The position numbers were made by a program, and so were the translations under genes. This document shows, piece by piece, positions 15,853 to 43,660 of a stretch of DNA of 64,000 nt (the first letter of the stretch is position 1; every line of letters starts with the position of its first letter). This DNA comes from Candidatus Altimarinota bacterium (lineage in GTDB: Bacteria; Patescibacteriota; Gracilibacteria; JBDHUY01): contig JBDHUY010000010.1 of the NCBI GenBank assembly GCA_039809385.1, positions 1 through 64,000 of the forward strand, in the 5' to 3' direction. The notes under the pieces were generated by a model. That model made no database searches and was not told the DNA's origin. It was given only the letters and a program-made list of their open reading frames with translations.

Positions 15853-15882
15853 GAATAGCGTTAATCTTTATCGGAATTTATC

Positions 15883-17659: not shown

Positions 17660-17693
17660 GGTAGTTATGTGGTTGCATGCATATCTTTCGATT

Positions 17694-18404
17694 TCAGCTT
17701 TTCATATCAGATAATGCAAACTCCACCGCCTTATCCGCGTGAATTCTGGTCGTATCAAACACCGGAACACCGCTGTCTGTCTGGTTAACCAGCAGCATGA
17801 TTTCGGTACATCCCAGGATGATCCCTTCCGCACCCCGGTCAATCATATCTTGCATAATCCGCCGATACTCCTGGCGCGATTCTACTTTGATCTGATTGAG
17901 ACACAACTCGTCGTAAATAATCTCATGAACGATATTCCGATCTGCTTCATGTGGCGTCAATACCTCCAGTCCGTACTTCTGTTCCAAACGTCCTTTATAA
18001 AAATCCTCCTCCATCGTGAATTTAGTGCCGAGCAATCCGATCTTTTTAAATCCCAGCTTTTGTATCATTTCGGCAGTAGCGTCGGCGATGTGCAGCAATG
18101 GAATTGGCACAGCGGCTTGCACTTGATCCGCCATCTTGTGCATCGTATTCGTGCAGATTATCACGCAATCGGCTCCAGCTTTTTCGAGTCGTTGTGCGAG
18201 CTTGATCATGGTATCGGTCAACTCTTCCCAGCGCCCCTTGTGTTGCAGTTTCTCGACCACTTCAAAATCAACTGATACTAATACAAGTTCAGCTGAATGA
18301 TTACCGCCCAAGCGTTCATTTACTCCTGTGTTAATAATTTCGTGATATTGTTGAGACGATGGCCATGCCATACCGCCAATAAGTCCTATGGTTTTCATAA
18401 GCAT
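17694..18404 (-). CDS. Aspartate/glutamate racemase family protein (RacX/YgeA-like)
   Basis: IGLIGGM, ICTNTMH, GLLGTKFTM and ILGCTEI (two catalytic Cys). Confidence 0.93.
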   Translation of the reverse strand: MLMKTIGLIGGMAWPSSQQYHEIINTGVNERLGGNHSAELVLVSVDFEVVEKLQHKGRWEELTDTMIKLAQRLEKAGADCVIICTNTMHKMADQVQAAVPIPLLHIADATAEMIQKLGFKKIGLLGTKFTMEEDFYKGRLEQKYGLEVLTPHEADRNIVHEIIYDELCLNQIKVESRQEYRRIMQDMIDRGAEGIILGCTEIMLLVNQTDSGVPVFDTTRIHADKAVEFALSDMKS

Positions 18405-18455
18405 TTGTGCTAAAAAGGTAAAACTTCGATGCTGAAGAAGCAGATGTATAGTCCC

Positions 18456-19769: not shown

Positions 19770-19856
19770 GGTACTTCTGTTATTGCGAGTTATGGATAAC
19801 ATCAGCGTGTAGTATAAAAGATGCAGCCTCTCCAGAGCAATATGAAAAATTTATCC

Positions 19857-22524: not shown

Positions 22525-22762
22525 TAGCTCTTTCTTGTAGCCAGTAATAAACTTCCAGGTTATCTATGGCGCAAATGGGAATATCTAACTGTTAAATCCA
22601 AAGTTCAATCCGTCGCGGCGGACCAATTGTCAAATCAAGTTCAAATGTAAAAAAATAACTACGAGTCTGGTTGAACTTTGATATTGGGATTTCTTTTGGT
22701 ATTTGGATTTTGATATTTGTCATTCTTGTACCCACTATTTTCTCTTTTTCAAAGTACTATCT

Positions 22763-24004
22763 ATGAACTCGGTTCTTGATTCCTATTTCGATGAAACTAC
22801 CATGAGTGTGCACTTCAAGCCCGGAGTGCCGGTATTTCAAAAAAAAGGCTTGCCGGGACAATGGGAAAAAGCCGTGGCCGCCAAAAAGAACCTGAGCGTT
22901 GCCGCAGCCGAAGAACTGGTGCAGAAACTTCTCACCGAAGCAGAACAGCTGCCAGACAGTTTTATCGAGATAGACAAACGTTTTAGCAAAGTGCTACAGG
23001 TCGGTCATTATCGGATCGTGATCGTACTCCCGCCCCTTTCCGATACGATTGAAATTACAGTCGCCCGTCCGCTCAAAAAACTGGGTATGTCCGATTACCG
23101 CATTTCGGAACGTCTAATTACGCGTCTCAAGCATTCTTCCGAAGGTGTCCTGATCGCGGGTCGTCCCGGTCAGGGAAAGAGCACCTTTGCCCAGGCCTTG
23201 ATCGAGCTTTATGCGGAGGAGCAGAAGATTATAAAAACGGTAGAAGCGCCGCGGGATTTACAGGTGCCGGACGACGTTACTCAGTATTCGCTGTTTCATT
23301 CCACGCTAACGGAGATTCACGATATTTTGCTACTGTCGCGTCCCGATTACACTTTTTTTGACGAGGTTAGAAACCGTGAAGATTTCGAACTATTCAAAGA
23401 TCTGCGTCTGACCGGTATCGGCATGGTCGGGGTAATTCACGGGGCTAAGCCGATCGATGCTATTCAGCGATTTGTCGGAAAAATAGAATTGGGTATGATT
23501 CCGGAGGTCGTGGATACGCTTATTTTTATCGAAGCCGGTAAGATTTATAAAGTCTACGAACTGGCTTTGACCGTAAAAGTTCCCCACGGCATGCAGGAAC
23601 AGGACCTGGCCCGGCCGGTAGTGGTGATCCGCGATTTCGAAACGCAGGAGACCGAGTACGAGATCTATACGTTTGGCAGTGAAACGGTGGTATTGCCTCT
23701 GCTTGGAAATTCGCAGAAAACGTTTCGATCGTCCGAGCCGCGGTCCTTCAAGCGAGCTTCCCGTTCGGTCGATGTATCTTCGTACGGTGCTGAAATTTTC
23801 CCACGTATGTTTCGGGATAAGAAAGGTGTACGGTTCCTGTTTGATACGGATGTCTCGGATGCAATTCTGTTGTTTGAGGATGGTCATACCTTTTCTCTGT
23901 CACCCAATCGGCGGGGATACGTCAAAATCGGCAAGCAGGGCAAGCTTCCCGACCTCTTGCGCAAACAATCATTTCGAGTTTTCCGAGCAGTAGAGGTCGA
24001 ATAG
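22763..24004 (+). CDS. PilT/VirB11-like ATPase resembling archaeal PINA but lacking the PIN domain
   Basis: Walker A GRPGQGKS, KTVEAPRDLQ, LLSRPDYTFFDEVR, LRLTGIGMVGVIHG and YEIYTFG. Confidence 0.8.
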   Translation: MNSVLDSYFDETTMSVHFKPGVPVFQKKGLPGQWEKAVAAKKNLSVAAAEELVQKLLTEAEQLPDSFIEIDKRFSKVLQVGHYRIVIVLPPLSDTIEITVARPLKKLGMSDYRISERLITRLKHSSEGVLIAGRPGQGKSTFAQALIELYAEEQKIIKTVEAPRDLQVPDDVTQYSLFHSTLTEIHDILLLSRPDYTFFDEVRNREDFELFKDLRLTGIGMVGVIHGAKPIDAIQRFVGKIELGMIPEVVDTLIFIEAGKIYKVYELALTVKVPHGMQEQDLARPVVVIRDFETQETEYEIYTFGSETVVLPLLGNSQKTFRSSEPRSFKRASRSVDVSSYGAEIFPRMFRDKKGVRFLFDTDVSDAILLFEDGHTFSLSPNRRGYVKIGKQGKLPDLLRKQSFRVFRAVEVE

Positions 24005-24811
24005 ATACAAGGCCCAGCGTTCCAGGCGTAGAACTTCCTGCTGGAGTTCCAGAATTTCATGGTTCCAGTCATAGTACTCTTTGAGAAATCCGGTCGGATC
24101 GTTATTGGCTGAATCCTTTTTAAACGTATGTCCGAAGAAGTCATAGTAGATGCTTCTGGCCATTTCGATACTGATTGCTGGAATTAATGGATTTTCGGGA
24201 TCTCGTCTTCGTATCATCCTATAGGCGTCCAGGAATTTATTAATTTTCAGATATTCGGTGTTCGAGGCACCCATATTATCCGGTTCATCCTGGGTTTTTG
24301 AAAAATCAAGTTCAGATATGCATCTCAATATATCTTTTTCTAAAGCATGAACCATGATCTGCATTTCTGCTCGCTGCGTCATTGCCTGCTCTTTCAGTTG
24401 CGTAAATTGTAAAAACGTCTGGCATCGGCTTGCTATCGCGGGGTGTTTCACCAACCTTGAAATATTAGTGTAAAATGAATCCACACAATGATCCAGCATG
24501 GAAAACTTCTCATCATAAAGCTTCCGTGCTTCTATCTGCATCTGTAACGTTTGATCCAGAATCTGTTTAATCATCTCAAATAGTGGAAAAATTTCCTCGA
24601 CGAACACAGCTTTACGAATAGCTCGTACTTTTGATCCTGATGTTTTCTCACTGGATCGATCCCACCGCTCTTTTATTCTGTCTATCTGGGAACGCAGATC
24701 CTGAATATGGTATTGAAATTTTAAAATCTCTTTTGGTGGAGTCCCGGGTTGTGATACAGGAACTACATTGGCATAGGTCGACTCTTCTTCTAGACGGTGG
24801 GTTTGCTCCAT
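23969..24811 (-). CDS. Hypothetical helical protein
   Basis: ORF directly downstream of the UvrD gene; ATG 24811 preferred; no motif. Confidence 0.6.
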   Translation of the reverse strand: MEQTHRLEEESTYANVVPVSQPGTPPKEILKFQYHIQDLRSQIDRIKERWDRSSEKTSGSKVRAIRKAVFVEEIFPLFEMIKQILDQTLQMQIEARKLYDEKFSMLDHCVDSFYTNISRLVKHPAIASRCQTFLQFTQLKEQAMTQRAEMQIMVHALEKDILRCISELDFSKTQDEPDNMGASNTEYLKINKFLDAYRMIRRRDPENPLIPAISIEMARSIYYDFFGHTFKKDSANNDPTGFLKEYYDWNHEILELQQEVLRLERWALYLFDLYCSENSK

Positions 24812-24818
24812 ATCAATT

Positions 24819-27800
24819 CTAAAATAAAGTATCTTTCCAGCAGATCTTGCGATAAGGGCACGTTTCGCAGTTGCGGATATCGGTGGTTTTGGGAAATTCA
24901 AGTTGTTGGATTTTGCCGTATACGTCTTTCAGGATTTTTTTAAATTCTTCGAACTCTTCACTCTTGTATTCGATCAGGGTTTGCCGGAAATTGGATCCGT
25001 CTTTTTCTGGAAAAACGAAATCCAGTACTCCTCCTACCGGATCGAGCTGTAAATCCCGGTCCAGTTCCACCAGCAGTTTATAGAATAAAAGCTGGTAAAA
25101 ATAACTTTTATCACCGCGGCTGGTTTCGGTCAAGCCTTTGATATCGTTTTCGGATCGTGGTCGTCCGGTTTTGTAATCGACAATATGTATCCGTAGGGGG
25201 GAATGGCCGTTCGCCTCTACGGGATCGGCTGGTTCAATCTTATCAATAACCCCGGTCAGCGGGATACCATCAAAATAGAGCGGGACGCGGTTATAATTGC
25301 GCTCCAGATACAAAGGTTTTGTAAATTTCCCGGCATAAAAATCATAATAGGCGCTCAAAACGCGCTTACCTTCTTTGGCCGATTCGCTAAAATCCGCTTC
25401 GGTCATCAATTCTTTTTGCAATGCTTCTGCGTAGAAGGACAATAGCATTTCTTTGCCCGGTGTAGAGACGGAATGCATTCCGTCTCTACGGGATGCATTT
25501 TCATAATTTTTTTTCAATTCTCCAAAGAACAGTTCCAGTGCCGCATGGACCGCCGTCCCGAATTGCTGCAATTTTTCTTTGCTGCGCGGGACTTTCAATA
25601 TGTGGTCGTACTGAAACTGGCGCGGACAGCGTAAATAGGCGTTTAATCCGACTGGATTCATCCGGTAATTCTTGACCAGTTCTTTCAGGAATTCTGCTTC
25701 TTTATGATCTTTATCGTGTCTTTCAGGTTCGAACAACAGCTTGATGGCTTCATCCGAACGACGCTCAAACATATCGACTTCTTCTTTTCGTAAAAATCTC
25801 TCATCGATCTCCCCGATAAACTGTGAGGGGATGGCGTTTTTCTTATCCAGCAGCGGATAGTTGTGAGCAAAACTGATCGAAATCTTGCGTTTGGCCCGCG
25901 TGAGAGCCACATAGAATAACCGTCGTTCGTCTTCGTTCACGGGGATCTCGTTCAGTTTTTGCTGGGTGAGCACATTGGGGGCGAGCGTTAACGGCTTACT
26001 TTTCTTCGGGTTGCCCCATTTCCCGTCGATACATTTGACCACAAATACATATTCGAATTCCAATCCTTTGGATTTATGCGCCGTCATCAGCCGGACGCCC
26101 TGTTCCAGGCCTTCCATAGCGGCTTCGGGGAGTCCGATGCCTTCGGAGGCCATCAACTCGATATCTTGTAGCAAAGCAGCGAGCGATAGTTTGTGATTTT
26201 TATAATTCTCGGATTTTAAAAAGTTAAACAAGGTGTTAAGGCGATGGATCGAGCGCAGGCTATTGGTATTGAGGAAGTGGTCGATGATACCGAACTCTCG
26301 CAGCATTTTCTCTACCAATTCGACCAGTATGACGTTGTGGCTTTCTTTCTGAAAAAAAAGAATTTTGCCGGCGATCTCTTCGATTTTTCTGGCCTCCTGA
26401 ATGCCGTTTTCCGCCAGTTTCTTCTGATCCATGAGAATATCGATCATCTTTTTCTCGCCGCTTTTATGGTTATAGGTCGAGCGCGATATTTTCATCAGAT
26501 CGAGCGGGATCAGACCGAACGCTGCGTGGTGTAGTACTCGAAAAAGCAAATCCTGCTGGTCCGGATCGACTATGACCTGAAGCAGTTCGATGACTCTCTG
26601 GATATCGTTATCGCGCAAAATATCAAACCCGCCCTCGATGTTCCAGGGAATATTTTTACGGGTAAAGGTATTGATAATATCGACGACATCCTGATTATTG
26701 CGATAAATAATGGCTATTTCGTTGGCCGCGATTCCCTCTTCAATCAATTCCTGAATACGCGTGGCCAGGTAATAGTTTTCGATCTCGCCGCTGGAGAATT
26801 CCAGGAGGGAGAGTTTTGCATCTTCGCTCGTTATTTCTTGTGTTCCATTGTCGTTCGTGGCTTTGGTGGACATACCCCGTCCCGCCACAGACGGGACACC
26901 CCTCTCAAGAGGGGATTTTTCTGTGCCTTCTGCTTTCTCCATACTTAATTCTTCGCCTATGCCTTTGACCATATTCCCCCCCTTACCCCCCTTTATCAAG
27001 GGGGACAAGGCAGTTTCTTCTCTTGATTCTTGATTCTTAATTCTTGATTCTGTCTGTCGACTGTCGGCTGTTAGTTGTAAACTGTCAGCTGCCCTGAACT
27101 GCTTGTCTATGGCAAACCCATAGATCGGGTTGGTAATTCGATCTTCGTTTTTTTCAATCACGCTGCCGGCGGCATCGAGGATCGTTTGGGTGCTGCGATA
27201 ATTGGTGCGTAATACCACGGTGCTGATGTTCTTGAACTTGTCATTTAAATACAACATATTTTCCAGAGAAGCACCTTGGAAACGGTAGATCGACTGGTCG
27301 TCGTCGCCCACGACGAACAGGTTTGGATTGTCGAAATAGTTGGCCAGCTGGTAGACGACGAAATTTTGGGCGCCGTTGGTATCCTGATACTCGTCGATCA
27401 GAAAATGGAAGTAGCGTTCTTGCAGATCCAGACGCAGCTCTTCGTCGGTTTTCAGTTTTTGCACCACGAACATGATCATATCTTCGTAGTCGTAGCGGCC
27501 CAAAGTTTCCAGGCGTTCCTGATAGCTATGGTAGATCAGCGCCAGTTCTTTGTTCTTTTCGAGCTTCTTGATCTCTTTGCGGTATCGTTCCCCTTGGGAT
27601 CCGTTTTTGTTTAACAGACAGGTATCGTTGCTAATAGCTTGCCCGTATTCTTCAACGATCCTATCGAAATCAGACGGCGCGATACCTTCTTTTTTCAGGT
27701 CTTTCAGGCAGTCGAGGATACTTCTGACATAGAAATAAGTTTCGCGAAACGAGCGCAATTCCGTTAACGGCAGTGTATCGATGATGTCGCGCATCATTTT

Positions 27801-28175
27801 GAACCGTTCGATATCGGTCAGGTTGGTGAAATCGCGGGTGCGGTAGGAGAATTTTTCGGGAAATTCGAGGATGATATCGTTACAGAACGAATGAAAGGTC
27901 TGAATATTGACGTAATAGCCGGTCGTGCCGATGAGTTCGATCAGCCGCTCCTTCATCGCCGCCACGCCGCTTTCGGTAAATGTCAGGGCTAGAATGTTCT
28001 GCGGCTTTATCTCTTCATTCAATAAAATATAGGCGATCCGCATGGCCAAGATCTGTGTCTTACCGGTACCCGGCCCGGCCACCACCAACACGGGGCCGTC
28101 AAATGTGGTCACGGCGGCTCTTTGTTCGGGGTTTAAACGCGCGAAGGCTTTGTCGAAAGCAGGGGAAGATTTCAT
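24819..28175 (-). CDS. UvrD/PcrA-like SF1 helicase fused to a PD-(D/E)xK nuclease with Fe-S Cys motif (AdnA/B-like)
   Basis: AGPGTGKT, IDEYQD, GDDDQSIY, NYRS, TAHKSKGLEF, RRLFYVALTRA; nuclease GVIDKI..IVDYKTG; YLRCP...CETCPYRKIC. Confidence 0.92.
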   Translation of the reverse strand: MKSSPAFDKAFARLNPEQRAAVTTFDGPVLVVAGPGTGKTQILAMRIAYILLNEEIKPQNILALTFTESGVAAMKERLIELIGTTGYYVNIQTFHSFCNDIILEFPEKFSYRTRDFTNLTDIERFKMMRDIIDTLPLTELRSFRETYFYVRSILDCLKDLKKEGIAPSDFDRIVEEYGQAISNDTCLLNKNGSQGERYRKEIKKLEKNKELALIYHSYQERLETLGRYDYEDMIMFVVQKLKTDEELRLDLQERYFHFLIDEYQDTNGAQNFVVYQLANYFDNPNLFVVGDDDQSIYRFQGASLENMLYLNDKFKNISTVVLRTNYRSTQTILDAAGSVIEKNEDRITNPIYGFAIDKQFRAADSLQLTADSRQTESRIKNQESREETALSPLIKGGKGGNMVKGIGEELSMEKAEGTEKSPLERGVPSVAGRGMSTKATNDNGTQEITSEDAKLSLLEFSSGEIENYYLATRIQELIEEGIAANEIAIIYRNNQDVVDIINTFTRKNIPWNIEGGFDILRDNDIQRVIELLQVIVDPDQQDLLFRVLHHAAFGLIPLDLMKISRSTYNHKSGEKKMIDILMDQKKLAENGIQEARKIEEIAGKILFFQKESHNVILVELVEKMLREFGIIDHFLNTNSLRSIHRLNTLFNFLKSENYKNHKLSLAALLQDIELMASEGIGLPEAAMEGLEQGVRLMTAHKSKGLEFEYVFVVKCIDGKWGNPKKSKPLTLAPNVLTQQKLNEIPVNEDERRLFYVALTRAKRKISISFAHNYPLLDKKNAIPSQFIGEIDERFLRKEEVDMFERRSDEAIKLLFEPERHDKDHKEAEFLKELVKNYRMNPVGLNAYLRCPRQFQYDHILKVPRSKEKLQQFGTAVHAALELFFGELKKNYENASRRDGMHSVSTPGKEMLLSFYAEALQKELMTEADFSESAKEGKRVLSAYYDFYAGKFTKPLYLERNYNRVPLYFDGIPLTGVIDKIEPADPVEANGHSPLRIHIVDYKTGRPRSENDIKGLTETSRGDKSYFYQLLFYKLLVELDRDLQLDPVGGVLDFVFPEKDGSNFRQTLIEYKSEEFEEFKKILKDVYGKIQQLEFPKTTDIRNCETCPYRKICWKDTLF
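25462..25489. repeat. GTAG-type REP-like palindrome inside the UvrD CDS
   Basis: Perfect 28-bp palindrome GTAGAGACGGAATGCATTCCGTCTCTAC. Confidence 0.8.
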
Positions 28176-28447
28176 GAATTTCTAAAATGTTGTTAAGCTC
28201 CAGCAACAGGGCCGTGCTGTTTGATATTTACGTAAAAGTTTATTATCATGATGTCGGACTTGTGGGCGGTAGCCCTCGACCGACCTCATTCGAGAGTTGG
28301 TCAACAAGTTCATTAAAAAGCCAAATAGTATATATCTGGCCTTTTTTGGAATAAACCATTATATTGATTGGGATGTAAATTTACCATGTTGAGAATAGGG
28401 TAAAAATCAGAATTTGCATCAGAAAAAATTATGGGTATACTATAAAT

Positions 28448-28520
28448 GTAGCGCAAGTTACCCTGTCCGCCGGAGGCGGATCCGATATCCAGACCTCGCT
28501 TTTAGGAGCGGGGTTTTTTT
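28448..28520 (+). ncRNA. Candidate three-hairpin small RNA convergent on the NYN gene
   Basis: TTGCAT-N16-TATACT at 28414-28441; GTAGC-GCAA-GTTAC; TCCGCC-GGA-GGCGGA; terminator ACCTCGCTT-TTAG-GAGCGGGGT-T6. Confidence 0.5.
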
Positions 28521-29152
28521 ATGCGGGTAATGTGGCTTTTGATCTTCTGTGCATTGATATAGACATCGGCTGTTTCTTTGAGCGTATGAAATACCTGCCC
28601 TGAGGCTACAATCATGATCTTTTTATGTTTGCGCTTTAAAAATCTCGTCAGATGGGCAAAATCACTGTCTCCCGACAGGAGACAGAAGGTATCATATTTA
28701 TCCATCAAACGAATGGCGTCGACGCTGATTTCGACATCGAAGTTACTTTTGGGTATTTCAATATATTGTCCGAGAGCGTCTTCTTTTCTGGTTCTGGTTG
28801 TGTTTCCTGTAAGCTCGATTTCGTTTAAATGATGTCTTATGAACTGGATGGGCTTGGTAATTTTGATAAATCCTGATTTTTGGGCCAGGATATTGATGTG
28901 TTGTGAAGATGGCATTCTGGTATGCCAGCCGTAATAGAATCGTTTTTGAATTGAAAAAAGATCCAGAAAGGTGCCTAATTTTACAATATCAACGATAATC
29001 CTGGAACCATCTTCCAGTGTATTGCCCTGAGCATCACGCTGATCGCGGCCAAACCAATAATTTACATTTCCAAAGTCTACAAAGGTGTAGATTTTTCCCA
29101 GTTTTGACCGGTCAATTCCCAAGCTACTTTGTTTGAAGTCCTGCAGATTCAT
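28502..29152 (-). CDS. NYN-domain (LabA/DUF88, PIN-like) protein
   Basis: FVDFGN, KSNFDVEISVD and LLSGDSDF acidic motifs. Confidence 0.9.
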   Translation of the reverse strand: MNLQDFKQSSLGIDRSKLGKIYTFVDFGNVNYWFGRDQRDAQGNTLEDGSRIIVDIVKLGTFLDLFSIQKRFYYGWHTRMPSSQHINILAQKSGFIKITKPIQFIRHHLNEIELTGNTTRTRKEDALGQYIEIPKSNFDVEISVDAIRLMDKYDTFCLLSGDSDFAHLTRFLKRKHKKIMIVASGQVFHTLKETADVYINAQKIKSHITRIKKPRS

Positions 29153-29452
29153 AAGATCAGATTGTCATGATGGTACAACGTCTTGTATCCTACTCTTTTT
29201 TACGCTGCTTGAAAAGCGGAACAGTGGTTCGTTTCCTTATGGCAAAATGCTAAATAACGATATCGACAACCATTTTATATTGACATATTGTATGTGCGCG
29301 GATAGAATCTTCATCTTTATTTCCCATATGTTCAGTGTTGTATGGCAATCGGTCTTGATATGCCGGTAAGGTACGGGATGAAAGTATCTTCTGCAAAGAC
29401 AGGGAATCCTTTGGACAGTTCCAAGCGAGATCTGGTATTTGAGAAGACCCAG

Positions 29453-32400
29453 ATGGATCCGGAAAAAAATGTACAAACAACGGTCCGTTTATTTGTGCAA
29501 AACGTTTTCACGCCTGGGGAATCTCACCATACGCAGCATCAACGGATTGATTGGAAAAATGTTCCTGATGAAGAACTGAAAGCGATGATCAATCAGTATA
29601 TTGCTGATCATGGTCTTACTTCGGAGCAATGGCAAAGATCAAGTTGGCTTTTGGAGAATGGCCATCGTTCATTTTACAGGGCTATGTCCAAGTGGTTTGA
29701 AAAATGGGAGAAGTTTCTGGAGTTCATGGAAGTAGCACAATTTGACTGGCAAAAAATTCCCGAAGCTGAACTCAAAGCTGAGGTCGAGCAGTATATCAAG
29801 AATCATAATCTCTCGTATGAGCAATGGCAAAGTACAAAATGGCTTAGTAGAAAGGGCCATAATTCGTTCTATGAAGCTATGCGTCAACGTTTTCAGGGGT
29901 GGGAGAACTTTCTGGTATTCATGAGAGTGGTACAAAAGACTATTGATTGGAAGGGAGTCCCCGAAGCTGAACTCAAAGGTGAGATCGAGCGGTATATTAA
30001 GAATAATGATCTCTCGAATGAGCAGTGGCAAAATTCAAGGTGGCTTAGTAGAAAGGGCCATAATTCGTTCTATGAAGCTATGCGTCAACGTTTTCAGGGG
30101 TGGGAGAACTTTCTGGTATTCATGAGAGTGGTACAAAAGACTATTGATTGGAAGGGAGTCCCCGAAGCTGAGCTCAAAGCTGAGGTCGCGCAGTATATCA
30201 AGAATAATGATCTCTCGAACGAGCAGTGGCAAAATTCAAAGTGGCTTCATGAAAACGGCCATCAGTTATTCTATAAAGCTATGCGTATCCGCTTTCAGGG
30301 CTGGGAAAACTTTCTGGTCTTCATGGACATTACAAAATTTGACTGGCAAGAAGTTCCCGAAGCCGAACTCAAAGCTGAGATCAAGCGGTATATCAAGAAT
30401 CATGATCTCTCGAATGAGCAATGGCAAAATTCATATTGGCTTGGTAGAAACAGCCATAGCCCATTTTACCTAGCCATGCGTACCCGCTTTCAGGGCTGGG
30501 AAAACTTTCTGGTCTTCATGGACATTACAAAATTTGACTGGCAAGAAGTTCCCGAAGCCGAACTCAAAGCTGAGATCAAGCGGTATATCAAGAATCATGA
30601 TCTCTCGAATGAGCAATGGCAAAATTCATATTGGCTTGGTAGAAACAACCATCAGTTATTTTATAAAGCCATGTTTAAACGCTTTAAAGCATGGGAAACC
30701 TTTCTCAGGTTCATGGGGATTGTAATAAAAGAACAGATTCATTGGCAGATCATTCCTGAAAATCAACTGAAAGCAACTATCCAACAATATATTCATAACC
30801 ATAAACTGACACCGGAGCAATGGCAAAATTCATATTGGCTTCGGGGAAACAGTCATAACCCATTTTACATAGCCATGCGTACCCGCTTTCAGGGGTGGGA
30901 AAACTTTCTGACGTTCATGGCAGTCACTAGCAATCCTTTGCAGAAGCTCACACGGTCTTTGACTGAAGATCCGTCTTTGCCCGAAGACAAGCAGAGAATT
31001 GAAGAATACAAAAATATCGTATCCAGCCTGGGCGAGAATACTTTGTTGCAATTTGTTTTGGCTACGAACCCCGAGCTACAAGCAAAGGCAAAAGAGGTTC
31101 GGCTGACACTCAAAAAGTGGATTGGTACAACACAAACTGCAGTCTCTTCCGTTCCTCCTATTCCCAGTTTGCCCGAAGCCCTCTTTCTACTCCTTCCCGA
31201 AGCCCGAGAGCTCGCTTTCGTCCTGCTAAGAGAATCATACTTTTCCCATTTTGAAAAGAAAGGTGAAGATGGCCTGCTGGAACTTGAACAACGTGTCTCC
31301 GAGCAACCGACTCCAACGCATCGCAGCATCTATCAACGGGTATGGGACTACTATGTTGACATCCTCGGTACAGAACCGCCACCAAACATTCGGTTGTCTC
31401 CCAGCCTCCATCAAAAAATGGGTGCTCACGAAATCCAGACCAAAAAGCGGTTTCTCATCGCCGATGATGTGGGAACCGGAAAAACTTTGATCGCTATCAT
31501 GGCGAAAGAGCAAATCGAAGCACAACGCCGGAAAAAGTCTGTAGAGAAAAATGAACTCTATCGTCGCAAAAAAACACTGGTTTTATGTCCCAGCGAAATG
31601 GTCGAAACGTGGCACAAACGCTTGGGAGCCGGACAAGAAGGATACTTTCTACCCGACTCTAGCGATCTTCCCCATGTAGTCTGCGTCAACGGTTCAAAAG
31701 ATCCCGCAGTATTGGAAAAGGCCGATTATATTGTTATGAACTATGACAAACTCGACCCTCACACTCTGGAGACTCTCATGCGATTACAGGATCTCGACTA
31801 CCTGGTTTTGGACGAAGCGCATAATGTCAAAAACATCGACGGCAAATGGAGCCGGTACGTACGCCAACTCTCGCTCGAACACGCGAGCATCAAAGACGGC
31901 TATACCGTGATCCTCTCGGCCACACCGTTGCCCAACAAGATCCACGAAGACCTGCCGGTCATGCTGCAGATGCTCCAACCGGAAAAATATCCCGATCTCG
32001 CGTTCCTCAAAAAACAGATCAACAACAGTAACGGGATGCTCATCCGTTCGATCCTGATGCACTCGATGCTCAGACATACCCAAACAGAAGTGTTGCATAG
32101 TTTGCCGAATCTCATTGATCCTCTGGTGCAAGGAAACGGCGGTCTGATTCGCTATGACCTGACTCCGGCCGAAAAAGCCTTGTACCAGTCAGTTCAGGAG
32201 GACGAGCACCTGAGCGGACTACAAAAACTATCAAAGCTCAATCAAATCTGTCTGGATCCCTGCTTTGTCGATTCCTCTATCGCCGAATCTTCCAAATATC
32301 GGGAATTGTCTCAAGTATTGAGCCACGATCTTACTTACACCGATAACGTGGTGGTGTTTGTCTCTCATTTCCGGGACGGAATAACCCGCGATTTCAAAGA

Positions 32401-34042
32401 AGAAGAAAAAGAAGATATGCACCTCTTAGCGAAGTTGAAACGCGACCCCGATTTTGCCGGAGTAAATTTTTACCGCATCGACGGCAAAGCCGGGAAAAAC
32501 GGCGAGGGCAAAGAACTGTCCCGGGAAAATATTTTAAAAACGGTCAGAAATACTCCCCAGGGTACCAAAAACGTTATCCTGGCTACCATTGATACCGCGA
32601 GTGAAGGGATCGATATGACATTTGCCTCGCGGGTCATTTTCCCCAATTTGCCCTATACCAAAGCCGCGTATCATCAAGCCTTGGGGCGCTTGTATCGTCC
32701 CGGACAGACCGAGGATGTACATGCTTCGGTATTAGTAGCGAATAGTACCACCGAAGAAGGCAACTTCGTATATATCAAGACCAAAGATCTGCTGATCCAA
32801 GAGATACTGGACGGCAAGATCATTACGGATGAGGAATGGGAAGAAATTTCACGCGATTTCAAAACGAGCACCAATAGTTTGCTTTCGTTCATGACCAAGA
32901 CTGATCACCAGAAACTCCTGTGGCTGTGGGGGAACATGGCCGGACGCGGGGCCGAGAGTTTAAAAAACTTCTTTGAACGCTACGGCGGTCAGTATGCCAA
33001 AGAGTTTGTGCGGTTATATATGGAAACTTTTGAGACTTCCTATGGCGGCAGCAACTTTCGCTTTTTATGCCGCAATATTTTGGAACCACTCTTTCAGGAA
33101 CGAGCTGATCTTCAAAAAATCGCTGATCTGGGATCCGGCCCCTTGGCACTAGCTGCCTATCTTGGCCAGGCTCATCCGGATAAAGAGATCCATGCGCTTG
33201 ACTTGAACCGCTTTGCCATTGAGGCGGGCCAGAAAAATCTTGTCGACAAACAAATTCCGTTCAACGGCACCGCCGAAGTCGGCAGTTTTACCAAAACCAA
33301 TTTTGAGAATGGTAGCCAAGATATGGCGATCTGTTCCTTAGCCTTTCACGCCACCCATCATCCCAACCAAGCCAAAAAAAGTGAGGAATCGGAACGAGCT
33401 CAGGCACTGTTTGAGTTCCATCGTATCTTACGCCAAGGCGGCGTGCTCGTACTTCTCGAAAAAAAGAGCATCCTGCAGGATGAAGAGCTGATCCGCTTTG
33501 GCAATGAACTCAAAAACTTTGGATTCCGGATTATTCCGAACCTTACCGGACGGGGATACTGTGCGGATGCCGCCGAGAACGGCAGTACCAAGGAGTTTGA
33601 AAATATTTCGATCGTGTGCGAAAAAATAAGCGAGCCGGTTTTTGATAAGATTAATTTGACGCATCTGGCATTTACGAAAAAGACCAAGAAAGTTCCATCT
33701 GGCACAACTACCCAAGAGCTTCCAGTTGATCAGACGCCGAAAGAATACAAGCACCATCGATTTGAGATCAAACCGCTATTTGAGCAAGAACCAGCTGCTT
33801 CCGACAAAGAGCAACAGGAAAAAGAAAAACAACGAGCCGAACGAGAGCGTATTCACCAACTGCTTCTGACTAAAATTCAGATTCTCATTGTCAAGCAGAG
33901 TAGCTTGGAAAAAACGATTCACGAAATTCGCGAACTCGGCGGCAAAATCGTTAAAACCCGCAATAAATCGGGAAGTAAAGATTACCAGATCTGGTTTGAA
34001 CATACATATCTGGGCAATCTGGAAGTGCTGATAAAAAATTAG
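29453..34042 (+). CDS. Tandem-repeat + SNF2-family helicase + class I SAM methyltransferase fusion
   Basis: 7 N-terminal repeats; DDVGTGKT, LVLCP, DEAH, LSATP, SEGIDM, QALGRLYRPGQ; IADLGSGP..ALDLN..DMAICSLAFH; start could be 29342 or 29378. Confidence 0.88.
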   Translation: MDPEKNVQTTVRLFVQNVFTPGESHHTQHQRIDWKNVPDEELKAMINQYIADHGLTSEQWQRSSWLLENGHRSFYRAMSKWFEKWEKFLEFMEVAQFDWQKIPEAELKAEVEQYIKNHNLSYEQWQSTKWLSRKGHNSFYEAMRQRFQGWENFLVFMRVVQKTIDWKGVPEAELKGEIERYIKNNDLSNEQWQNSRWLSRKGHNSFYEAMRQRFQGWENFLVFMRVVQKTIDWKGVPEAELKAEVAQYIKNNDLSNEQWQNSKWLHENGHQLFYKAMRIRFQGWENFLVFMDITKFDWQEVPEAELKAEIKRYIKNHDLSNEQWQNSYWLGRNSHSPFYLAMRTRFQGWENFLVFMDITKFDWQEVPEAELKAEIKRYIKNHDLSNEQWQNSYWLGRNNHQLFYKAMFKRFKAWETFLRFMGIVIKEQIHWQIIPENQLKATIQQYIHNHKLTPEQWQNSYWLRGNSHNPFYIAMRTRFQGWENFLTFMAVTSNPLQKLTRSLTEDPSLPEDKQRIEEYKNIVSSLGENTLLQFVLATNPELQAKAKEVRLTLKKWIGTTQTAVSSVPPIPSLPEALFLLLPEARELAFVLLRESYFSHFEKKGEDGLLELEQRVSEQPTPTHRSIYQRVWDYYVDILGTEPPPNIRLSPSLHQKMGAHEIQTKKRFLIADDVGTGKTLIAIMAKEQIEAQRRKKSVEKNELYRRKKTLVLCPSEMVETWHKRLGAGQEGYFLPDSSDLPHVVCVNGSKDPAVLEKADYIVMNYDKLDPHTLETLMRLQDLDYLVLDEAHNVKNIDGKWSRYVRQLSLEHASIKDGYTVILSATPLPNKIHEDLPVMLQMLQPEKYPDLAFLKKQINNSNGMLIRSILMHSMLRHTQTEVLHSLPNLIDPLVQGNGGLIRYDLTPAEKALYQSVQEDEHLSGLQKLSKLNQICLDPCFVDSSIAESSKYRELSQVLSHDLTYTDNVVVFVSHFRDGITRDFKEEEKEDMHLLAKLKRDPDFAGVNFYRIDGKAGKNGEGKELSRENILKTVRNTPQGTKNVILATIDTASEGIDMTFASRVIFPNLPYTKAAYHQALGRLYRPGQTEDVHASVLVANSTTEEGNFVYIKTKDLLIQEILDGKIITDEEWEEISRDFKTSTNSLLSFMTKTDHQKLLWLWGNMAGRGAESLKNFFERYGGQYAKEFVRLYMETFETSYGGSNFRFLCRNILEPLFQERADLQKIADLGSGPLALAAYLGQAHPDKEIHALDLNRFAIEAGQKNLVDKQIPFNGTAEVGSFTKTNFENGSQDMAICSLAFHATHHPNQAKKSEESERAQALFEFHRILRQGGVLVLLEKKSILQDEELIRFGNELKNFGFRIIPNLTGRGYCADAAENGSTKEFENISIVCEKISEPVFDKINLTHLAFTKKTKKVPSGTTTQELPVDQTPKEYKHHRFEIKPLFEQEPAASDKEQQEKEKQRAERERIHQLLLTKIQILIVKQSSLEKTIHEIRELGGKIVKTRNKSGSKDYQIWFEHTYLGNLEVLIKN
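29546..30925 (+). repeat. Seven tandem coding repeats of 195-204 bp (65-68 aa)
   Basis: Consensus DWxxVPEAELKAEIxxYIKNxDLSNEQWQNSxWLxxxxHxxFYxAMRxRFQGWENFLxFM; near-identical DNA copies 201 and 195 bp apart. Confidence 0.92.
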
Positions 34043-34073: not shown

Positions 34074-34595
34074 ATGGCAAAAAGAAAAGATGTCAATACT
34101 CCTTCATTTTCCTCTGGAGTGACCAATCATATTATTCCTAGGCAGTCAGATACAAAGGAGATTGGTTCATTACAAGAAAAGGTTCACAACGAAGTCTTGG
34201 CTGCGGTGGATTTTACCAAACCTGCCGAGGAAGTCGCCCGGCAACTAATTGGTAAGAAAATAAAAAGAGTGCTCCAAGACGGCACCACCATCGAAGCCCT
34301 TATTACCAAAGTCGTTGCTTACACCAAAGAAGATAACGAAAAAGGAAAATACAAAGCCATTCTCACAGGAGAGCCGGGAGATCTGATCGTTACTAACACG
34401 ATGGGACATCTGATTATGAATATCATTACCCAGGACAGCAGCTGCATAACCCTGCAGTCAATTCAACACAATGGCAAAGCGATCGAGGGTAAAGGGAAGG
34501 TGAGTAAAGCCTTAGAGATCAAAGGGATTGGGAAGGGGCAAAAAGTGACTGGCGTGAATGTAACGCATCCGGGTGCTGTATTGACCATTGAATAG
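34074..34595 (+). CDS. Divergent AAG/MPG 3-methyladenine DNA glycosylase-like protein, catalytic Glu apparently lost
   Basis: FTKPAEEVARQLIGKKIKR, ITKVVAY (canonical IVETEAY), GEPGDLIV..GHLIMNIIT, GKGKVSKALEI (canonical GPGKLCQALGI). Confidence 0.7.
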   Translation: MAKRKDVNTPSFSSGVTNHIIPRQSDTKEIGSLQEKVHNEVLAAVDFTKPAEEVARQLIGKKIKRVLQDGTTIEALITKVVAYTKEDNEKGKYKAILTGEPGDLIVTNTMGHLIMNIITQDSSCITLQSIQHNGKAIEGKGKVSKALEIKGIGKGQKVTGVNVTHPGAVLTIE

Positions 34596-40084: not shown

Positions 40085-40125
40085 CACAAAAAAATGTCAG
40101 ATTTTAATTGGTATGTATCACTCCC

Positions 40126-41544
40126 ATGCACCTGTGCGAAAAACTTCAACAAGGCTTGCTTGAGATCAAACAGATCAGCGAAAAACTGAATAGACTTCAA
40201 GATGAACTGGGAAGTATTCAAACGGTTCAAGAGTTGCAAGCAAAAGAGTCACAACTAAACGAGGCTATCTCTCAATGTGAATCGAAACAGAAGGAGTTGG
40301 AAGGGTTAAAGTACAACTTTCCAGCCGAAGTGTTACAAATGTTTGGAATTGAACTGCATGAAGAGAACCTGAATAAAGTTCAACAGGATGAAGATGGGTA
40401 CTGTGTCAGTATTGAATTTCCTCTTAAAAATATACAAAGTATTCCAGCAGAGATTCAGTACCTACGGAAGCTTACCAGTCTTAATCTAAATGACAACAAA
40501 CTAACAGTCCTCCCCCCTGAGATTGGGAAATTGTTGGAGCTGAGGGAACTGAATCTAAGGTACAACAAACTAACAGTCCTTCCCCCTGAGATTGGGAAAT
40601 TGTTGGAACTGAGGGAACTGAATCTCTTTAGCAACCAACTAACAATTCTCCCCCCTGAGATTGGGCAATGGGAGAAGCTGGAGAAACTTAATCTCTCTAG
40701 CAACCAACTAACAATTCTCCCCCCTGAGATTGGGAAATTGTTGGAACTGAGGGAACTGAATCTCTTTAGCAACCAACTAACAACCCTCCCCGTTGAGATT
40801 GGGAAATGGGAGAATTTGGAGGAACTTGTTCTCTCTGGTAACCAACTAACAGATCTCCCCACTCAGATTGAGAAATGGTTGAAACTGAAAAAACTTCATC
40901 TTGCTCGCAACCGGATACACCTCCCCCTTGAGATTAGGAAGTTGTTGGAACTGAGGGAACTTAATCTTGCTAACAACCAACTAACAACCCTCCCCCCTGA
41001 GATTGGGCAATGGGGGAAGCTGGAGATAATCAATCTCGCTTACAACAGACTAACAGATCTCCCTGCTGAGATTGGGAAATTGTTGGAACTGAGGGAACTT
41101 AATCTCGCTAGCAATCAACTAAAAACCCTTCCCCTTGAGGTTGGGGAATTGGAGAATTTGGAGAAACTTAATCTTTCTAACAACCAACTAACAGTCCTCC
41201 CCTCTGAGATTGGGAAATTGTTGAAACTGAGGGAACTTAATCTCTCTAGCAACAAACTAACAATTCTCCCCCCTGAGATTGGGGAATTGTTGGAGCTGAG
41301 GGAACTGAATCTCTCTAGCAACCAATTAACAGATCTCCCCATTCAGATTGGAGAATTGGAGAATTTGGAGAAACTTAATCTTTCTAACAACCAACTAACA
41401 GATCTCCCCACTCAGATTTGGGACTTGCCGAAACTGCAACCTTTTAGTTTCAGTAACAATCGCTTTTCTGAAGATGAATGGATTAAAAATAAAGCAGCCC
41501 TATCGGCGGCGTTTGCCCGACGTTCTGCGGGCAGATATCCATAG
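40126..41544 (+). CDS. LRR protein 1 (MHLC coiled-coil leader + ~15 LRRs)
   Basis: 23-aa repeats LPPEIGKLLELRELNLxxNQLT; leader shared with the paralogs. Confidence 0.92.
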   Translation: MHLCEKLQQGLLEIKQISEKLNRLQDELGSIQTVQELQAKESQLNEAISQCESKQKELEGLKYNFPAEVLQMFGIELHEENLNKVQQDEDGYCVSIEFPLKNIQSIPAEIQYLRKLTSLNLNDNKLTVLPPEIGKLLELRELNLRYNKLTVLPPEIGKLLELRELNLFSNQLTILPPEIGQWEKLEKLNLSSNQLTILPPEIGKLLELRELNLFSNQLTTLPVEIGKWENLEELVLSGNQLTDLPTQIEKWLKLKKLHLARNRIHLPLEIRKLLELRELNLANNQLTTLPPEIGQWGKLEIINLAYNRLTDLPAEIGKLLELRELNLASNQLKTLPLEVGELENLEKLNLSNNQLTVLPSEIGKLLKLRELNLSSNKLTILPPEIGELLELRELNLSSNQLTDLPIQIGELENLEKLNLSNNQLTDLPTQIWDLPKLQPFSFSNNRFSEDEWIKNKAALSAAFARRSAGRYP

Positions 41545-41546
41545 AT

Positions 41547-41681
41547 TTAAAACAACACTCCCCTGAGATTAGGAATCTTAAGGAACTGATTCGACTTTAT
41601 CTTGAGGAGAATGATTTTATTGCGGTGAAAAAAAAGCAAAATAGAAAACTATTTAGTCCGACGTTCAAGATATCTTTTTGA
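41547..41681 (+). pseudogene. Orphan last LRR plus C-terminal cap of an LRR gene
   Basis: Translates SPEIRNLKELIRLYLEENDFIAVKKKQNRKLFSPTFKISF*, matching the caps of LRR2 and LRR4; no start codon. Confidence 0.7.
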
Positions 41682-41689
41682 CTACCCTC

Positions 41690-42544
41690 ATGCACCTGTG
41701 CCAAGAACTACAACAAGGCTTGCTTGAGATCAAACAGATCAGCGAAAAACTGAATAAACTTCGAAATGAACTGAGAAATATTCAGATGGTTCAAGAGTTG
41801 AAAGAAAAAGAGTCGCAACTGGACCAATCGATCTCTCAATGTGAATCGAAACAAAAGGAGTTGGAAGAGGAAAAATACAACTTTCCAGCCGAAGTATTAC
41901 GCATGTTTGGACTTGAGGTAAATGAAGAGAATCTGAAGAAGGTTCAACTGGATGAAGGAGGGTACTGTGTCGGTCTTGACCTATCTGGACAAAAAATACA
42001 AACGATTCCGGCAGAGATTCAGTACTTACGGAGACTGACTTCTCTTGATCTTTCTTACAATCAACTGACAGAGCTGCCCCCCGAGATTGGGAATTTGTCG
42101 AAACTGGAGAATCTTAATCTCTATCATAACCAACTGAACCTTCTCCCATCAGAGATTGGGTACCTCAGGGAATTGACCTTACTTAGTCTCGGAATTAACC
42201 AACTGAAAGTTCTGCCACCTGAGATTGGGAACTTACCGAATCTGGAAGGGCTTGATCTTAATGATAATCAACTAAAGGCTCTGCCACCTGAGATTGGGAA
42301 CTTACTGAATCTGAAAGAGCTTTTTCTTGATAACAACCAACTGAAAGTTCTGCCACCTGAGATTGGGAACTTACCGAATCTGGAAAAACTTTTACTTAAT
42401 GGCAATCAACTGAAGGATCTACCATCAGAGATTGGGAAACTCGAGAAACTATTTGAACTGAATCTCTATGGGAATTCTCTAATTGAAGTAGAGAAAGAGA
42501 AAATTAAAAAACTATTTGACACTCCCGTCAATATATACGTTTGA
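41690..42544 (+). CDS. LRR protein 2 (MHLC leader + ~7 LRRs)
   Basis: MHLCQELQQGLLEIKQISEKLN; LPPEIGNLxNL repeats. Confidence 0.92.
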   Translation: MHLCQELQQGLLEIKQISEKLNKLRNELRNIQMVQELKEKESQLDQSISQCESKQKELEEEKYNFPAEVLRMFGLEVNEENLKKVQLDEGGYCVGLDLSGQKIQTIPAEIQYLRRLTSLDLSYNQLTELPPEIGNLSKLENLNLYHNQLNLLPSEIGYLRELTLLSLGINQLKVLPPEIGNLPNLEGLDLNDNQLKALPPEIGNLLNLKELFLDNNQLKVLPPEIGNLPNLEKLLLNGNQLKDLPSEIGKLEKLFELNLYGNSLIEVEKEKIKKLFDTPVNIYV

Positions 42545-42554
42545 TTATCCCCCC

Positions 42555-43649
42555 ATGCACCTGTGCGAACAATTACAACAAGAGTTTGTTCAAATCAAAC
42601 AACTGGCCTTGTGGCTGGACGATTTGAGGAAGCAGATTGAATTGGCCCAAAGCATCAAAGATCTTGATCCCATCTATCCAAGGCTTCCGGAAAAACTGGC
42701 CGTGTTCGAGAAACAAAAAATTGAAATGGAGCAGAAAAGCTGGAATTTTCCCCGGAATATATTAAAAATGTTTGGACTCGAAGTTACAGAAGAAAACCTG
42801 AAAAAAATCACACTCGATGAACATGGCTATTGTGTGGAAATCAATTTTTCTTCCCAAGGCCTAAAAAGCATCCCCGCAGAGATCGTACACCTTACAAAAC
42901 TAAAGAAACTTAGCCTTTCAGAAAACCCGCTCCAGACGCTCCCTCCTGAAATTGGACAACTTACCGGATTGACTGAACTCTATCTCAATTATAACGCAAT
43001 AACAACTCTCCCGTCGCTCCCCAATTTAACCATACTCCAGCTTGCTTTTAACAAACTCAGAGCTTTTCCAGGTGAGATTGAGGATTTTTCCAGCTTGAGG
43101 GAACTTACCCTGGGTTTTAACCAGTTCCAAACTTTTCCGCCTGCAATCGGAAAGCTTACCGGACTAACGAAGCTCGACTTCGATAATAACGAACTCACCA
43201 CTCTCCCGCCCGAAATCGGCAATCTCTTCCAATTAGAAGAGCTCTCCCTTACCAAAAATAAACTTAGCACTCTCCCGCCCGAAATCGGAAAGCTTGCCGG
43301 ACTAAGGGAGCTCTACTTCATTGATAACGAACTCACCACTCTCCCGCCCGAAATCGGCAATCTCTTTCAATTAGAAGAGTTCTACATTAGCAACAATAAA
43401 CTCAAAGATCTGCCAATCGAGATGGAGAAACTTTTGAACCTACAGAAATTTCATTTCATGAATAACCAGATTAAGACTATCCCGGAACAGATCAGAAAAC
43501 TCCCCAATCTGACTGAATTCTATCCCTATGGAAATCCACTTGAGAAAAACGTAGACATAAGCTGGTCCGATAAATTGTATAATCTCTTCCCGGACAAAGT
43601 AAAGCGACACATTAAAAACATACTTCAAAAAGTTAAGAATCGTCCTTAA
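42555..43649 (+). CDS. LRR protein 3 (divergent MHLC leader + ~10 LRRs)
   Basis: MHLCEQLQQEFVQIKQ..WNFPRNILKMFGLE; LPPEIG repeats. Confidence 0.92.
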   Translation: MHLCEQLQQEFVQIKQLALWLDDLRKQIELAQSIKDLDPIYPRLPEKLAVFEKQKIEMEQKSWNFPRNILKMFGLEVTEENLKKITLDEHGYCVEINFSSQGLKSIPAEIVHLTKLKKLSLSENPLQTLPPEIGQLTGLTELYLNYNAITTLPSLPNLTILQLAFNKLRAFPGEIEDFSSLRELTLGFNQFQTFPPAIGKLTGLTKLDFDNNELTTLPPEIGNLFQLEELSLTKNKLSTLPPEIGKLAGLRELYFIDNELTTLPPEIGNLFQLEEFYISNNKLKDLPIEMEKLLNLQKFHFMNNQIKTIPEQIRKLPNLTEFYPYGNPLEKNVDISWSDKLYNLFPDKVKRHIKNILQKVKNRP

Positions 43650-43660
43650 CCAGATATCCC

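Follow-up and report, generated by a model that had tools for sequence, protein, structure and literature searches.

The window analysed here is a stretch of 64,000 nucleotides (nt) from a Candidatus Altimarinota bacterium of the class Gracilibacteria (NCBI GenBank assembly GCA_039809385.1, contig JBDHUY010000010.1, positions 1 to 64,000, forward strand). The genome assembly comprises 1.87 Mb in 26 contigs and is 95% complete. The window contains an open reading frame (ORF), P0001, which encodes a single protein of 1566 amino acids (aa) made up of a leader, seven tandem repeats, a linker, an SNF2 ATPase, a methyltransferase and a tail. This architecture and the family assignments of its parts, taken alone, are regarded as close to certain. 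The gene had been singled out in an earlier prediction made from the letters and a list of ORFs (the original prediction), which placed its start at 29453; that position lies inside the ORF and is the internal Met38. The coordinates of the features are collected in Table 1.

Domain architecture and repeat array of P0001

Pfam recognizes the motor by two domains, the SNF2-related domain (SNF2-rel_dom), with 73.9 bits where the cut-off is 24.9, and Helicase_C, with 41.4 bits where it is 23.5. A Walker A motif (GxGKT) and a DExH motif are both present, which qualifies the region as an SNF2 ATPase, and its closest solved relative in the PDB is the Sulfolobus SNF2 core 1z63 (E = 7.6e-15). Residues 1260-1371 match Methyltransf_11 and Methyltransf_25, scoring 35.2 and 35.1 bits, respectively, where the cut-offs are 21.2 and 27, the closest solved relative being a generic S-adenosylmethionine (SAM) methyltransferase (E = 0.27). 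The original prediction had likened this domain to Rrp8 or Methyltransf_11 types; the second likeness was confirmed, while Rrp8/Methyltransf_8 stayed below threshold (18.0 bits, E = 0.0028, cut-off 27). It had also remarked on the lack of NPPY/DPPY and PCQ motifs, in agreement with a regular-expression scan of the entire protein in which no [DNS]PP[YFWH], PC[QH] or ENV motif was found. P0001 has neither the amino-methyltransferase motif IV of N6-adenine and N4-cytosine enzymes nor the PC(Q/H) and ENV motifs of cytosine-5 enzymes, Dnmt5 included. No nuclease domain, HNH and homing endonucleases among them, was found in P0001 using Pfam. Judged by their sequences, the motor and the methyltransferase both look intact. 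The accession PF26291.1 stands among the precomputed Pfam matches of P0001 and may already describe part of the protein; no mention of PF26291 was found in the literature searched.

Table 1. Features of the P0001 locus and its surroundings, and arrays of a second repeat type in three related proteins.
Feature	Position	Strand	Remarks
Promoter-like site TTGACA-17-TAGAAT	29280..29308	+	34 nt 5' of first ATG; strong (11/12 in consensus scan); putative
ORF P0001	29342..34042	+	Whole protein; parts listed below
N-terminal leader	29342..29545	+	aa 1-68; no Pfam match
Repeat R1	29546..29740	+	aa 69-133 (65 aa); most divergent copy
Repeat R2	29741..29941	+	aa 134-200 (67 aa); 3' half identical to that of R3
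Repeat R3	29942..30142	+	aa 201-267 (67 aa)
Repeat R4	30143..30337	+	aa 268-332 (65 aa); 5' part near R3, 3' end identical to R5
Repeat R5	30338..30532	+	aa 333-397 (65 aa); first 115 nt identical to R6
Repeat R6	30533..30736	+	aa 398-465 (68 aa)
Repeat R7	30737..30934	+	aa 466-531 (66 aa); divergent copy
Linker	30935..31441	+	aa 532-700; aligns with SNF2-methyltransferase family from about aa 550 on
SNF2 N-lobe	31442..32191	+	aa 701-950; GTGKT at aa 711, DEAH at aa 824
Helicase C-terminal lobe	32294..32704	+	aa 985-1121; Pfam
Class I SAM methyltransferase fold	33095..33469	+	aa 1252-1376; Methyltransf_11/25 type
C-terminal tail	33470..34039	+	aa 1377-1566; kept to about aa 1480-1520 in family; no named domain
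Methylpurine-DNA-glycosylase-like ORF	34074..34595	+	173 aa; 32 nt after P0001 stop
Upstream cluster of DNA-/RNA-acting genes	22703-29152		
Four consecutive leucine-rich-repeat proteins	40108-44788	+	478, 288, 377 and 375 aa
Second repeat type, 7 copies	L046 (G131) aa 124-822		N-terminal array on SNF2-methyltransferase
Second repeat type, 6 copies	L045 (G278) aa 85-587		N-terminal array on SNF2-methyltransferase
Second repeat type, 6 copies	P0006 aa 115-670		Beside six HNH_repeat-like repeats

Residues 69-531 consist of the seven repeats (R1-R7) arranged head to tail. On the array DNA, Tandem Repeats Finder gave a period of 201, 5.1 copies, 85% matches and a score of 1164. In the aligned protein repeats 25 columns are invariant and the mean column identity is 74%; the modular repeats of the original prediction are real, with a scaffold less constant than the near-constant one it described. 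Each repeat contains one of the seven variant strings that it quoted, without any mismatch. The old outliers are R1 and R7 (65-76% nucleotide identity), and R2-R6 are 78-89% identical to one another. Blocks of identical DNA are shared by the 3' halves of R2 and R3, by the first 115 nt of R5 and R6 and by the 3' ends of R4 and R5, and the 5' parts of R3 and R4 are also shared at the DNA level. Such a mosaic is characteristic of gene conversion or of duplication in staggered steps, which accounts for the recurrence of HQLFYKAM in the non-adjacent repeats R4 and R6; the recurrence itself had been correctly noted, and its attribution to shuffling fits the blocks less well. No second copy of the array was found in the genome at the protein level. 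An origin by a diversity-generating retroelement was considered and set aside, as the array has no second genomic copy and the differences lie between repeats and not between reads.

The number and order of the seven repeats rest on one assembled contig. The P0001 gene was found in public runs from activated-sludge and wastewater metagenomes, with no RNA run among the public runs listed. Contigs from these runs cover the array with gaps, and among the pieces listed none spans the whole gene. Contigs of a second study match the R2-R3 and R4-R5 junctions with no differences. In run X1, a contig corresponding to window positions 29459-31432 connects 30046 with 30472 through 29 letters of other sequence, resulting in the order R1-R2-R4-R6-R7. 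This five-repeat path is exactly what the shared blocks permit in a k-mer graph, and the contig may represent either a genuine allele with five repeats or a collapse of the graph, the two being indistinguishable.

Relatives of the repeat and of the SNF2-methyltransferase core

In a Pfam search the whole protein gave no repeat family and no row for HNH_repeat (PF18780; gathering score 26 bits) at E <= 1, and six single repeats (R1, R2 and R4-R7) gave neither a Pfam repeat family nor a PF18780 row at E <= 10. A six-frame search of the genome with PF18780 gave nothing above the cut-off and nothing at the P0001 locus. A profile built from the seven repeats was searched against 1.84 billion representative proteins and found 30 others (E <= 0.001) with 1-7 stretches each, 11 of which reach the Pfam HNH_repeat cut-off. 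Two proteins found by this profile, P0017 (E = 1.7e-14) and P0020 (E = 1.3e-11), score 51.7 and 61.8 bits, respectively, on PF18780. Alignment with hhalign of the seven repeats to 25 repeats from five PF18780-positive proteins gave a probability of 96.3% and E = 1.5e-9 over 53 columns. A resemblance of the repeat ending to the RFGSW motif of homing-endonuclease-associated repeats, proposed at the outset, is borne out by this alignment and by the transitive HMMER/Pfam links. On these profile comparisons the P0001 repeats belong to a divergent, rare branch of HNH_repeat, with a homology that is real but remote.

Common to the P0001 repeats and PF18780 are tandem helical units of about 54-66 aa and the pattern ...W..NG....Y.....RFGSW..F....G. 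The P0001 repeats differ in an additional N-terminal helix with a DW..VPE.ELK motif, and the array is joined to an SNF2-methyltransferase rather than to an HNH nuclease. No experimental description of the function or structure of PF18780 was found in a full-text search; PMC8078820 lists the family in a table row. Sequence searches of the PDB with alignments A1 and A3 and with protein P0017 gave nothing below E = 0.09. The repeat is present in three of 400 other genomes of the class and in 3/400 of a phylum sample; among 60 relatives it was found at a convincing level in none (0/60), with one weak match. A tblastn search of the array against phage and plasmid collections gave no match.

The motor and methyltransferase have a wider distribution. 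A six-frame search of the 400 other class genomes with the C-terminal 402 aa gave matches in 14, ten of them inside large ORFs of 1199-1905 aa (G207, G161, G081, G306, G103, G047, G015, G278, G131 and G232). Residues ~550-1523 of P0001 are colinear with all ten from the linker through SNF2, the bridge and the Methyltransf_11-type domain to the tail; identity is 23-28% and E values go down to 7e-73. Nine align over 817-1049 columns (E = 2e-35 to 7e-73) and the tenth over 458 columns comprising the helicase-domain end and the methyltransferase only (E = 8e-21). Both SNF2/helicase and Methyltransf_11 are recognized by Pfam in seven of the ten; in the remaining three the helicase alone is recognized, yet the methyltransferase region matches by search. 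G278 reaches 26.9 bits on Methyltransf_8 (cut-off 27). In the 400-genome phylum sample the methyltransferase region gave one match, from the class itself. Among the genomes sampled the core family is, as far as these searches indicate, confined to its own class of small-genome bacteria; it is unnamed, no description of it was found in the literature searched, and the original prediction did not mention it.

Four methyltransferase motifs are conserved in the core family: D(L/I)(G/A)(S/C)GP, xD(L/I)N, NC(A/S)LA(F/L) and E.NR.L..GG. The SAM motif DLGSGP is conserved across 12 family sequences and NC(A/S)LA(F/L) stands at the place of motif IV. The set fits no DNA-methyltransferase class, and its conservation argues for an active enzyme.

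None of the ten core-family ORFs carries the HNH_repeat-like array. Some of their N-termini share a domain of ~200 aa. A second, unrelated type of tandem repeat, of 85-100 aa with a RYLxLIRDGxSxxEA-like ending and no Pfam match, forms the N-terminal array of two members and is also found in P0006 (Table 1). From these comparisons the core family is best described as SNF2-methyltransferase fusions carrying variable N-terminal arrays, and in P0001 the seven-repeat array takes the place of the usual N-terminal region.

Word-index homologue searches had given a narrower picture: P0001 retrieved only four distant SNF2 proteins, alignment A2 only P0025 and the C-terminal 407 aa only P0043. As these searches missed the SNF2-methyltransferase family, uniqueness is not to be inferred from them. 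P0043 (617 aa, on a 2-kb contig) is the closest relative of the methyltransferase part, with 37% identity over 380 aligned residues. In P0043 the start of the SNF2 N-lobe is joined straight to the end of the C-lobe, so that most of the motor is missing. A further observation from the class-wide search is that the methyltransferase-region matches in G113, G284 and G259 contain 3-6 in-frame TGA codons, an indication that TGA has a sense meaning in some class members; the P0001 ORF needs no such reading. Together with the Candidatus Peribacteraceae name of one homologue, these codons suggest a class of Patescibacteria, probably one to which Peribacteria belong.

The repeat is joined to SNF2/SF2 (superfamily 2) helicases without a methyltransferase in at least 13 proteins (P0002, P0012, P0014, P0015, P0019, P0020, P0028, P0035, P0037, P0038, P0039, G341 and G389), and one repeat-SNF2 homologue is named Candidatus Peribacteraceae. 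In P0002, P0014, P0015, P0019/P0038, P0037, P0039, G341 and G389 an N-terminal array of 3-5 copies is followed by an SNF2 ATPase as in P0001; these proteins differ from it in the middle region and in having no methyltransferase. The SNF2 domains of the repeat-helicase proteins share just 21-25% identity with that of P0001 and are no closer to it than SNF2 proteins that lack the repeat; several independent fusions of the repeat with a DNA motor are therefore probable. The gene in G389 (L017 1639-5545, - strand) consists of two overlapping ORFs of 363 aa (three repeats) and 1014 aa (two repeats and SNF2), which may reflect a frameshift or a real split.

Two arrays stand in other surroundings. 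A stand-alone HNH_repeat array in G651 (125 bits; L028 1312-5657) overlaps a ParB gene, with a SAM methyltransferase coming after the array, and one in G735 (L027 8380-14678) adjoins genes for a type IV secretion pilin, PrgI and a TraG-like protein. Both settings look mobile-element-like from their gene content.

Variable surface and proposed function

AlphaFold2 was run on R2-R4 with a 34-row whole-homologue alignment (A4) and gave a mean predicted local distance difference test score (pLDDT) of 91 and a predicted template modelling score (pTM) of 0.57; a single-sequence run on R3-R5 was unusable (pLDDT 42.6). Five helices are predicted per repeat (residues 8-21, 26-30, 32-37, 41-50 and 54-60), with helices 3 and 4 separated by a three-residue turn containing a conserved G/H. 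The two linker-containing ten-residue blocks have mean pLDDT values of 75 and 78. Because the five-helix repeats are joined by lower-confidence linkers, the modelled array resembles a string of beads more than a solenoid. No convincing match to the repeat model was found among solved or viral predicted structures, and no DNA-binding fold came up among them; the fold is without a known match, and newness is not claimed for it.

Columns 33, 36, 37, 39, 41, 42, 45, 48 and 49 are the residue-rich ones in the P0001 repeats. Invariant residues of helices 3-4 (W34, L35, F43, Y44, A46, M47 and F51) are candidates for a buried stripe, and columns 33, 36, 37, 41, 42, 45, 48 and 49 alternate with invariant hydrophobic ones. 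In the AlphaFold2 secondary structure the variable columns would thus point outwards from helices 3 and 4 and the turn between them, on one side of the domain, as a recognition surface of the kind originally proposed would have them. The helix 3-turn-helix 4 segment carries a net charge of +2 to +4 in every P0001 repeat, and helix 1 is acidic or neutral. A family model was built and 136 repeats were aligned; the mean charge of the segment is +2.5 in the family, and the eight variable columns hold 26% K/R, 28% S/T/N/Q and 10% D/E.

The original prediction had placed the variation in one part of the repeat. Among the inner repeats R2-R6 this stands: columns with at least three residues number 7/19 in codons 31-49 and 2/42 outside (Fisher p = 0.0027). 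Further variable columns lie outside these codons (5, 16, 23, 26 and 59, as well as the linkers).

Comparable variation was found in homologues. Their arrays comprise 1-8 stretches and are not invariant, an invariant array in homologues being what would have told against the original prediction. Several are more homogenized than that of P0001, with mean within-protein repeat identities of 0.82 (P0038), 0.73 (P0030) and 0.71 (P0017) compared with 0.64. In ten such proteins the variable columns coincide with those of P0001 (Spearman 0.20-0.39), and the column variability in P0001 correlates with the family-wide entropy (Spearman 0.46). The closest comparison is that of P0019 and P0038, which fall in one 90% cluster (90% identity over 1053 aa) and have arrays of three and five repeats, exactly two whole units apart. 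In the three aligned repeat pairs, 17/24 cells differ in the eight P0001-defined columns and 23/174 elsewhere (p = 8e-9), with the caveat that paired repeats in such arrays are not necessarily orthologous. On these alignments it is a property of the repeat family that one segment changes quickly at particular positions and that repeat number also turns over rapidly.

We tentatively propose that the array targets the SNF2 motor and the methyltransferase, most likely to DNA, a reading to which we give a little less than an even chance. The array would be the targeting part, each module presenting its positively charged helix 3-turn-helix 4 surface; it would most likely contact DNA over several base pairs (bp) per module, in the manner of tandem zinc fingers or Myb/helix-turn-helix modules. 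With ATP as its fuel, the SNF2 motor would travel along double-stranded DNA or deform it, either at the bound site or starting from there, and the fused methyltransferase would modify its substrate there, which could be a non-canonical DNA base, a DNA-bound protein or RNA. Gene conversion between repeats, or their unequal recombination, would alter the array itself. A zinc-finger-like targeting array of several modules is plausible, P0001 may be an evolvable targeting device, and the system may serve chromosome biology or genetic conflict.

Several results weigh against this proposal. With all seven repeats included, the concentration of variable columns in codons 31-49 is not significant (10/19 inside and 11/42 outside, p = 0.079), and the excess of nonsynonymous over synonymous minimum changes among R2-R6 is only a trend (20:4 in these codons, 17:12 outside, p = 0.07). 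The exposure of the variable columns follows from helix periodicity, that is from predicted secondary structure and conservation, and not from coordinates. Whole P0001 repeats are roughly neutral (net charge -2 to +2). The methyltransferase has none of the DNA-methyltransferase signatures checked. No assignment at family level came from PADLOC, NCBIfam or PHROGs, the first two yielding generic SNF2 similarity only, and in tblastn searches of seven neighbouring proteins (the leucine-rich-repeat proteins left out) at 13 homologue loci, a few kb to each side, none recurs. The fast columns are, moreover, the least conserved family-wide as well, and relaxed constraint on a surface patch could therefore explain part of the pattern.

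Taken further, the last point leads to the view that the repeats are a spacer or protein-binding scaffold, in which codons 31-49 are simply the least constrained surface patch, drifting once recent tandem duplication and partial conversion had taken place, with no recognition code. We consider this somewhat unlikely. The mosaic of identical DNA blocks does point to recent duplication or conversion, the variable columns are the highest-entropy columns of the family, the ratio of nonsynonymous to synonymous polymorphism (pN/pS) in codons 31-49 is ~0.6 overall and ~1 among the inner repeats and so not clearly above 1, and the model matched no DNA-binding fold. Drift alone, however, sits poorly with helix 1, the exposed positions of which vary family-wide yet are near-constant in the inner repeats, a position-specific contrast. 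It also sits poorly with the concentration of the P0019/P0038 differences in the same eight columns, with the positive charge of the segment throughout and with the repeated joining of the family to helicases, ParB or conjugation genes.

That P0001 belongs to a conflict system, in anti-phage or mobile-element defence or in counter-defence, is unlikely. The array would then sense foreign DNA or protein, and the SNF2-methyltransferase would mark self or disable the invader, as happens in defence systems that pair a helicase with a methylase. The fast turnover of recognition-surface residues and of repeat number would suit such a role, as would the patchy distribution of repeat and core among the class genomes and the neighbourhood, in which an AddA-like helicase-nuclease and an NYN protein precede the gene and a glycosylase-like ORF follows it. 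The top PADLOC rows are likewise defence helicases (HmaA, DrmD and DpdE), but their scores lie far under family level: HmaA, the first of them, matches part of the C-lobe with 43 bits, and NCBIfam DrmD scores 50.2 bits where the cut-off is 610. P0001 is not at family level for any of the known defence helicases considered (DISARM DrmD, Dpd DpdE, Hma HmaA and BREX BrxHII) and has no nuclease domain. PADLOC gave no match for four of eight neighbouring ORFs and only generic rows for the others, none being a defence model; the loci have no conserved partner in common, neither the phage nor the plasmid collections held a match, and homologue loci such as G061 sit among housekeeping genes.

A role coupled to RNA or RNA polymerase, with a RapA-like SNF2 ATPase, an RNA-methylating domain and repeats binding RNA or the polymerase, is very unlikely. 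The methyltransferase is of a type common to many RNA and small-molecule methyltransferases and carries no DNA-methyltransferase motif, and weak NCBIfam rows point to RapA (42.5 bits) and to a Snf2 helicase regulating pilus expression (80.9 bits). These scores are nevertheless far under the respective cut-offs (576, an equivalog cut-off, and 1100 bits), the closest solved relatives are DNA-translocating SNF2 cores, and it is with HNH-repeat proteins, ParB and conjugation genes that relatives of the repeat are associated. The TALE-like (transcription activator-like effector) array of the original prediction, in which each repeat would recognize a single base by way of two or three variable residues, shares a constant scaffold and clustered variable positions with P0001 but is highly improbable, since each unit of 65-68 aa is a five-helix domain of its own joined by lower-confidence linkers (pTM 0.57) and not a 33-35-aa solenoid repeat with a two-residue code, at least eight columns vary over two helices, and the linker length differs between units (Table 1).

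For the proposed targeting role, the nearest likeness in logic is to tandem C2H2 zinc-finger arrays such as PRDM9, in which a homogenized scaffold carries a few fast-evolving recognition-helix positions and a methyltransferase is attached. The likeness is one of logic only and includes repeat gain and loss by unequal recombination; the fold is unrelated, P0001 has no zinc ligands, its methyltransferase differs in class and substrate, and its DNA binding is only predicted. Type ISP restriction-modification enzymes carry an SF2 motor and a methyltransferase on a single polypeptide. A preprint describes Dnmt5 as a fungal SNF2-coupled cytosine-5 DNA methyltransferase (bioRxiv 10.1101/2020.01.05.895227). 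P0001 resembles Dnmt5 and the Type ISP enzymes in combining an SF2/SNF2 motor with a methyltransferase in one chain; unlike them, it has no C5 motifs (PCQ, ENV), NPPY motif, nuclease or known target-recognition domain.

If the array reads DNA through a fast-evolving surface, it would be a fourth kind of modular, re-targetable repeat for binding DNA, beside zinc fingers, TALEs and the RNA-binding PPR/PUF proteins, and a function would be given to the uncharacterized HNH_repeat family. A stronger version of the proposal, which we think quite unlikely, is that HNH_repeat-like modules constitute an evolvable multi-module DNA reader covering a few bp per 65-aa domain via ~8 fast-evolving residues, with arrays rebuilt by recombination, and that these and the second repeat type steer an SNF2 motor fused to a non-canonical methyltransferase, writing a DNA or nucleoid mark. 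Were it true, P0001 would be a bacterial counterpart in logic to eukaryotic zinc-finger-guided or SNF2-coupled methyltransferases and a possible new programmable DNA-binding scaffold. As the methyltransferase lies outside all DNA-methyltransferase classes, its substrate could reveal a new ATP-coupled modification. If the array is a spacer only, P0001 would be an unusual domain fusion of modest interest.

Neighbouring genes and other features of the window

The glycosylase-like ORF that follows P0001 is the sole copy in the genome. Its family match runs on through two stop codons to 34655, and the gene may be C-terminally truncated. A functional link between a glycosylase for methylated purines and the adjoining unclassified methyltransferase is suggestive but conjectural. 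The upstream cluster includes a homologue of the PINA-like Holliday-junction ATPase (NF010335, 490 bits), an NYN-domain protein and a 1118-aa AddA/PcrA-like helicase that also has a PD-(D/E)XK nuclease; a 310-aa ORF in the same cluster gave no Pfam, NCBIfam or PADLOC match. Upstream of the four leucine-rich-repeat genes lie two large ORFs, one of 786 aa without a Pfam match and one of 899 aa that matches AAA_5 weakly.

At 15883-17553 (- strand) the window encodes another helical repeat protein that is linked to helicases and unrelated to P0001. This 556-aa ORF contains three tandem repeats of ~85 aa that match the Pfam family Helicase associated (HA; 30.6 bits, cut-off 28.4). Genes for three enzymes of the oxidative pentose phosphate branch, 6-phosphogluconolactonase, glucose-6-phosphate dehydrogenase and 6-phosphogluconate dehydrogenase, are grouped with that for phosphoglucose isomerase at 5830-19802 (- strand).

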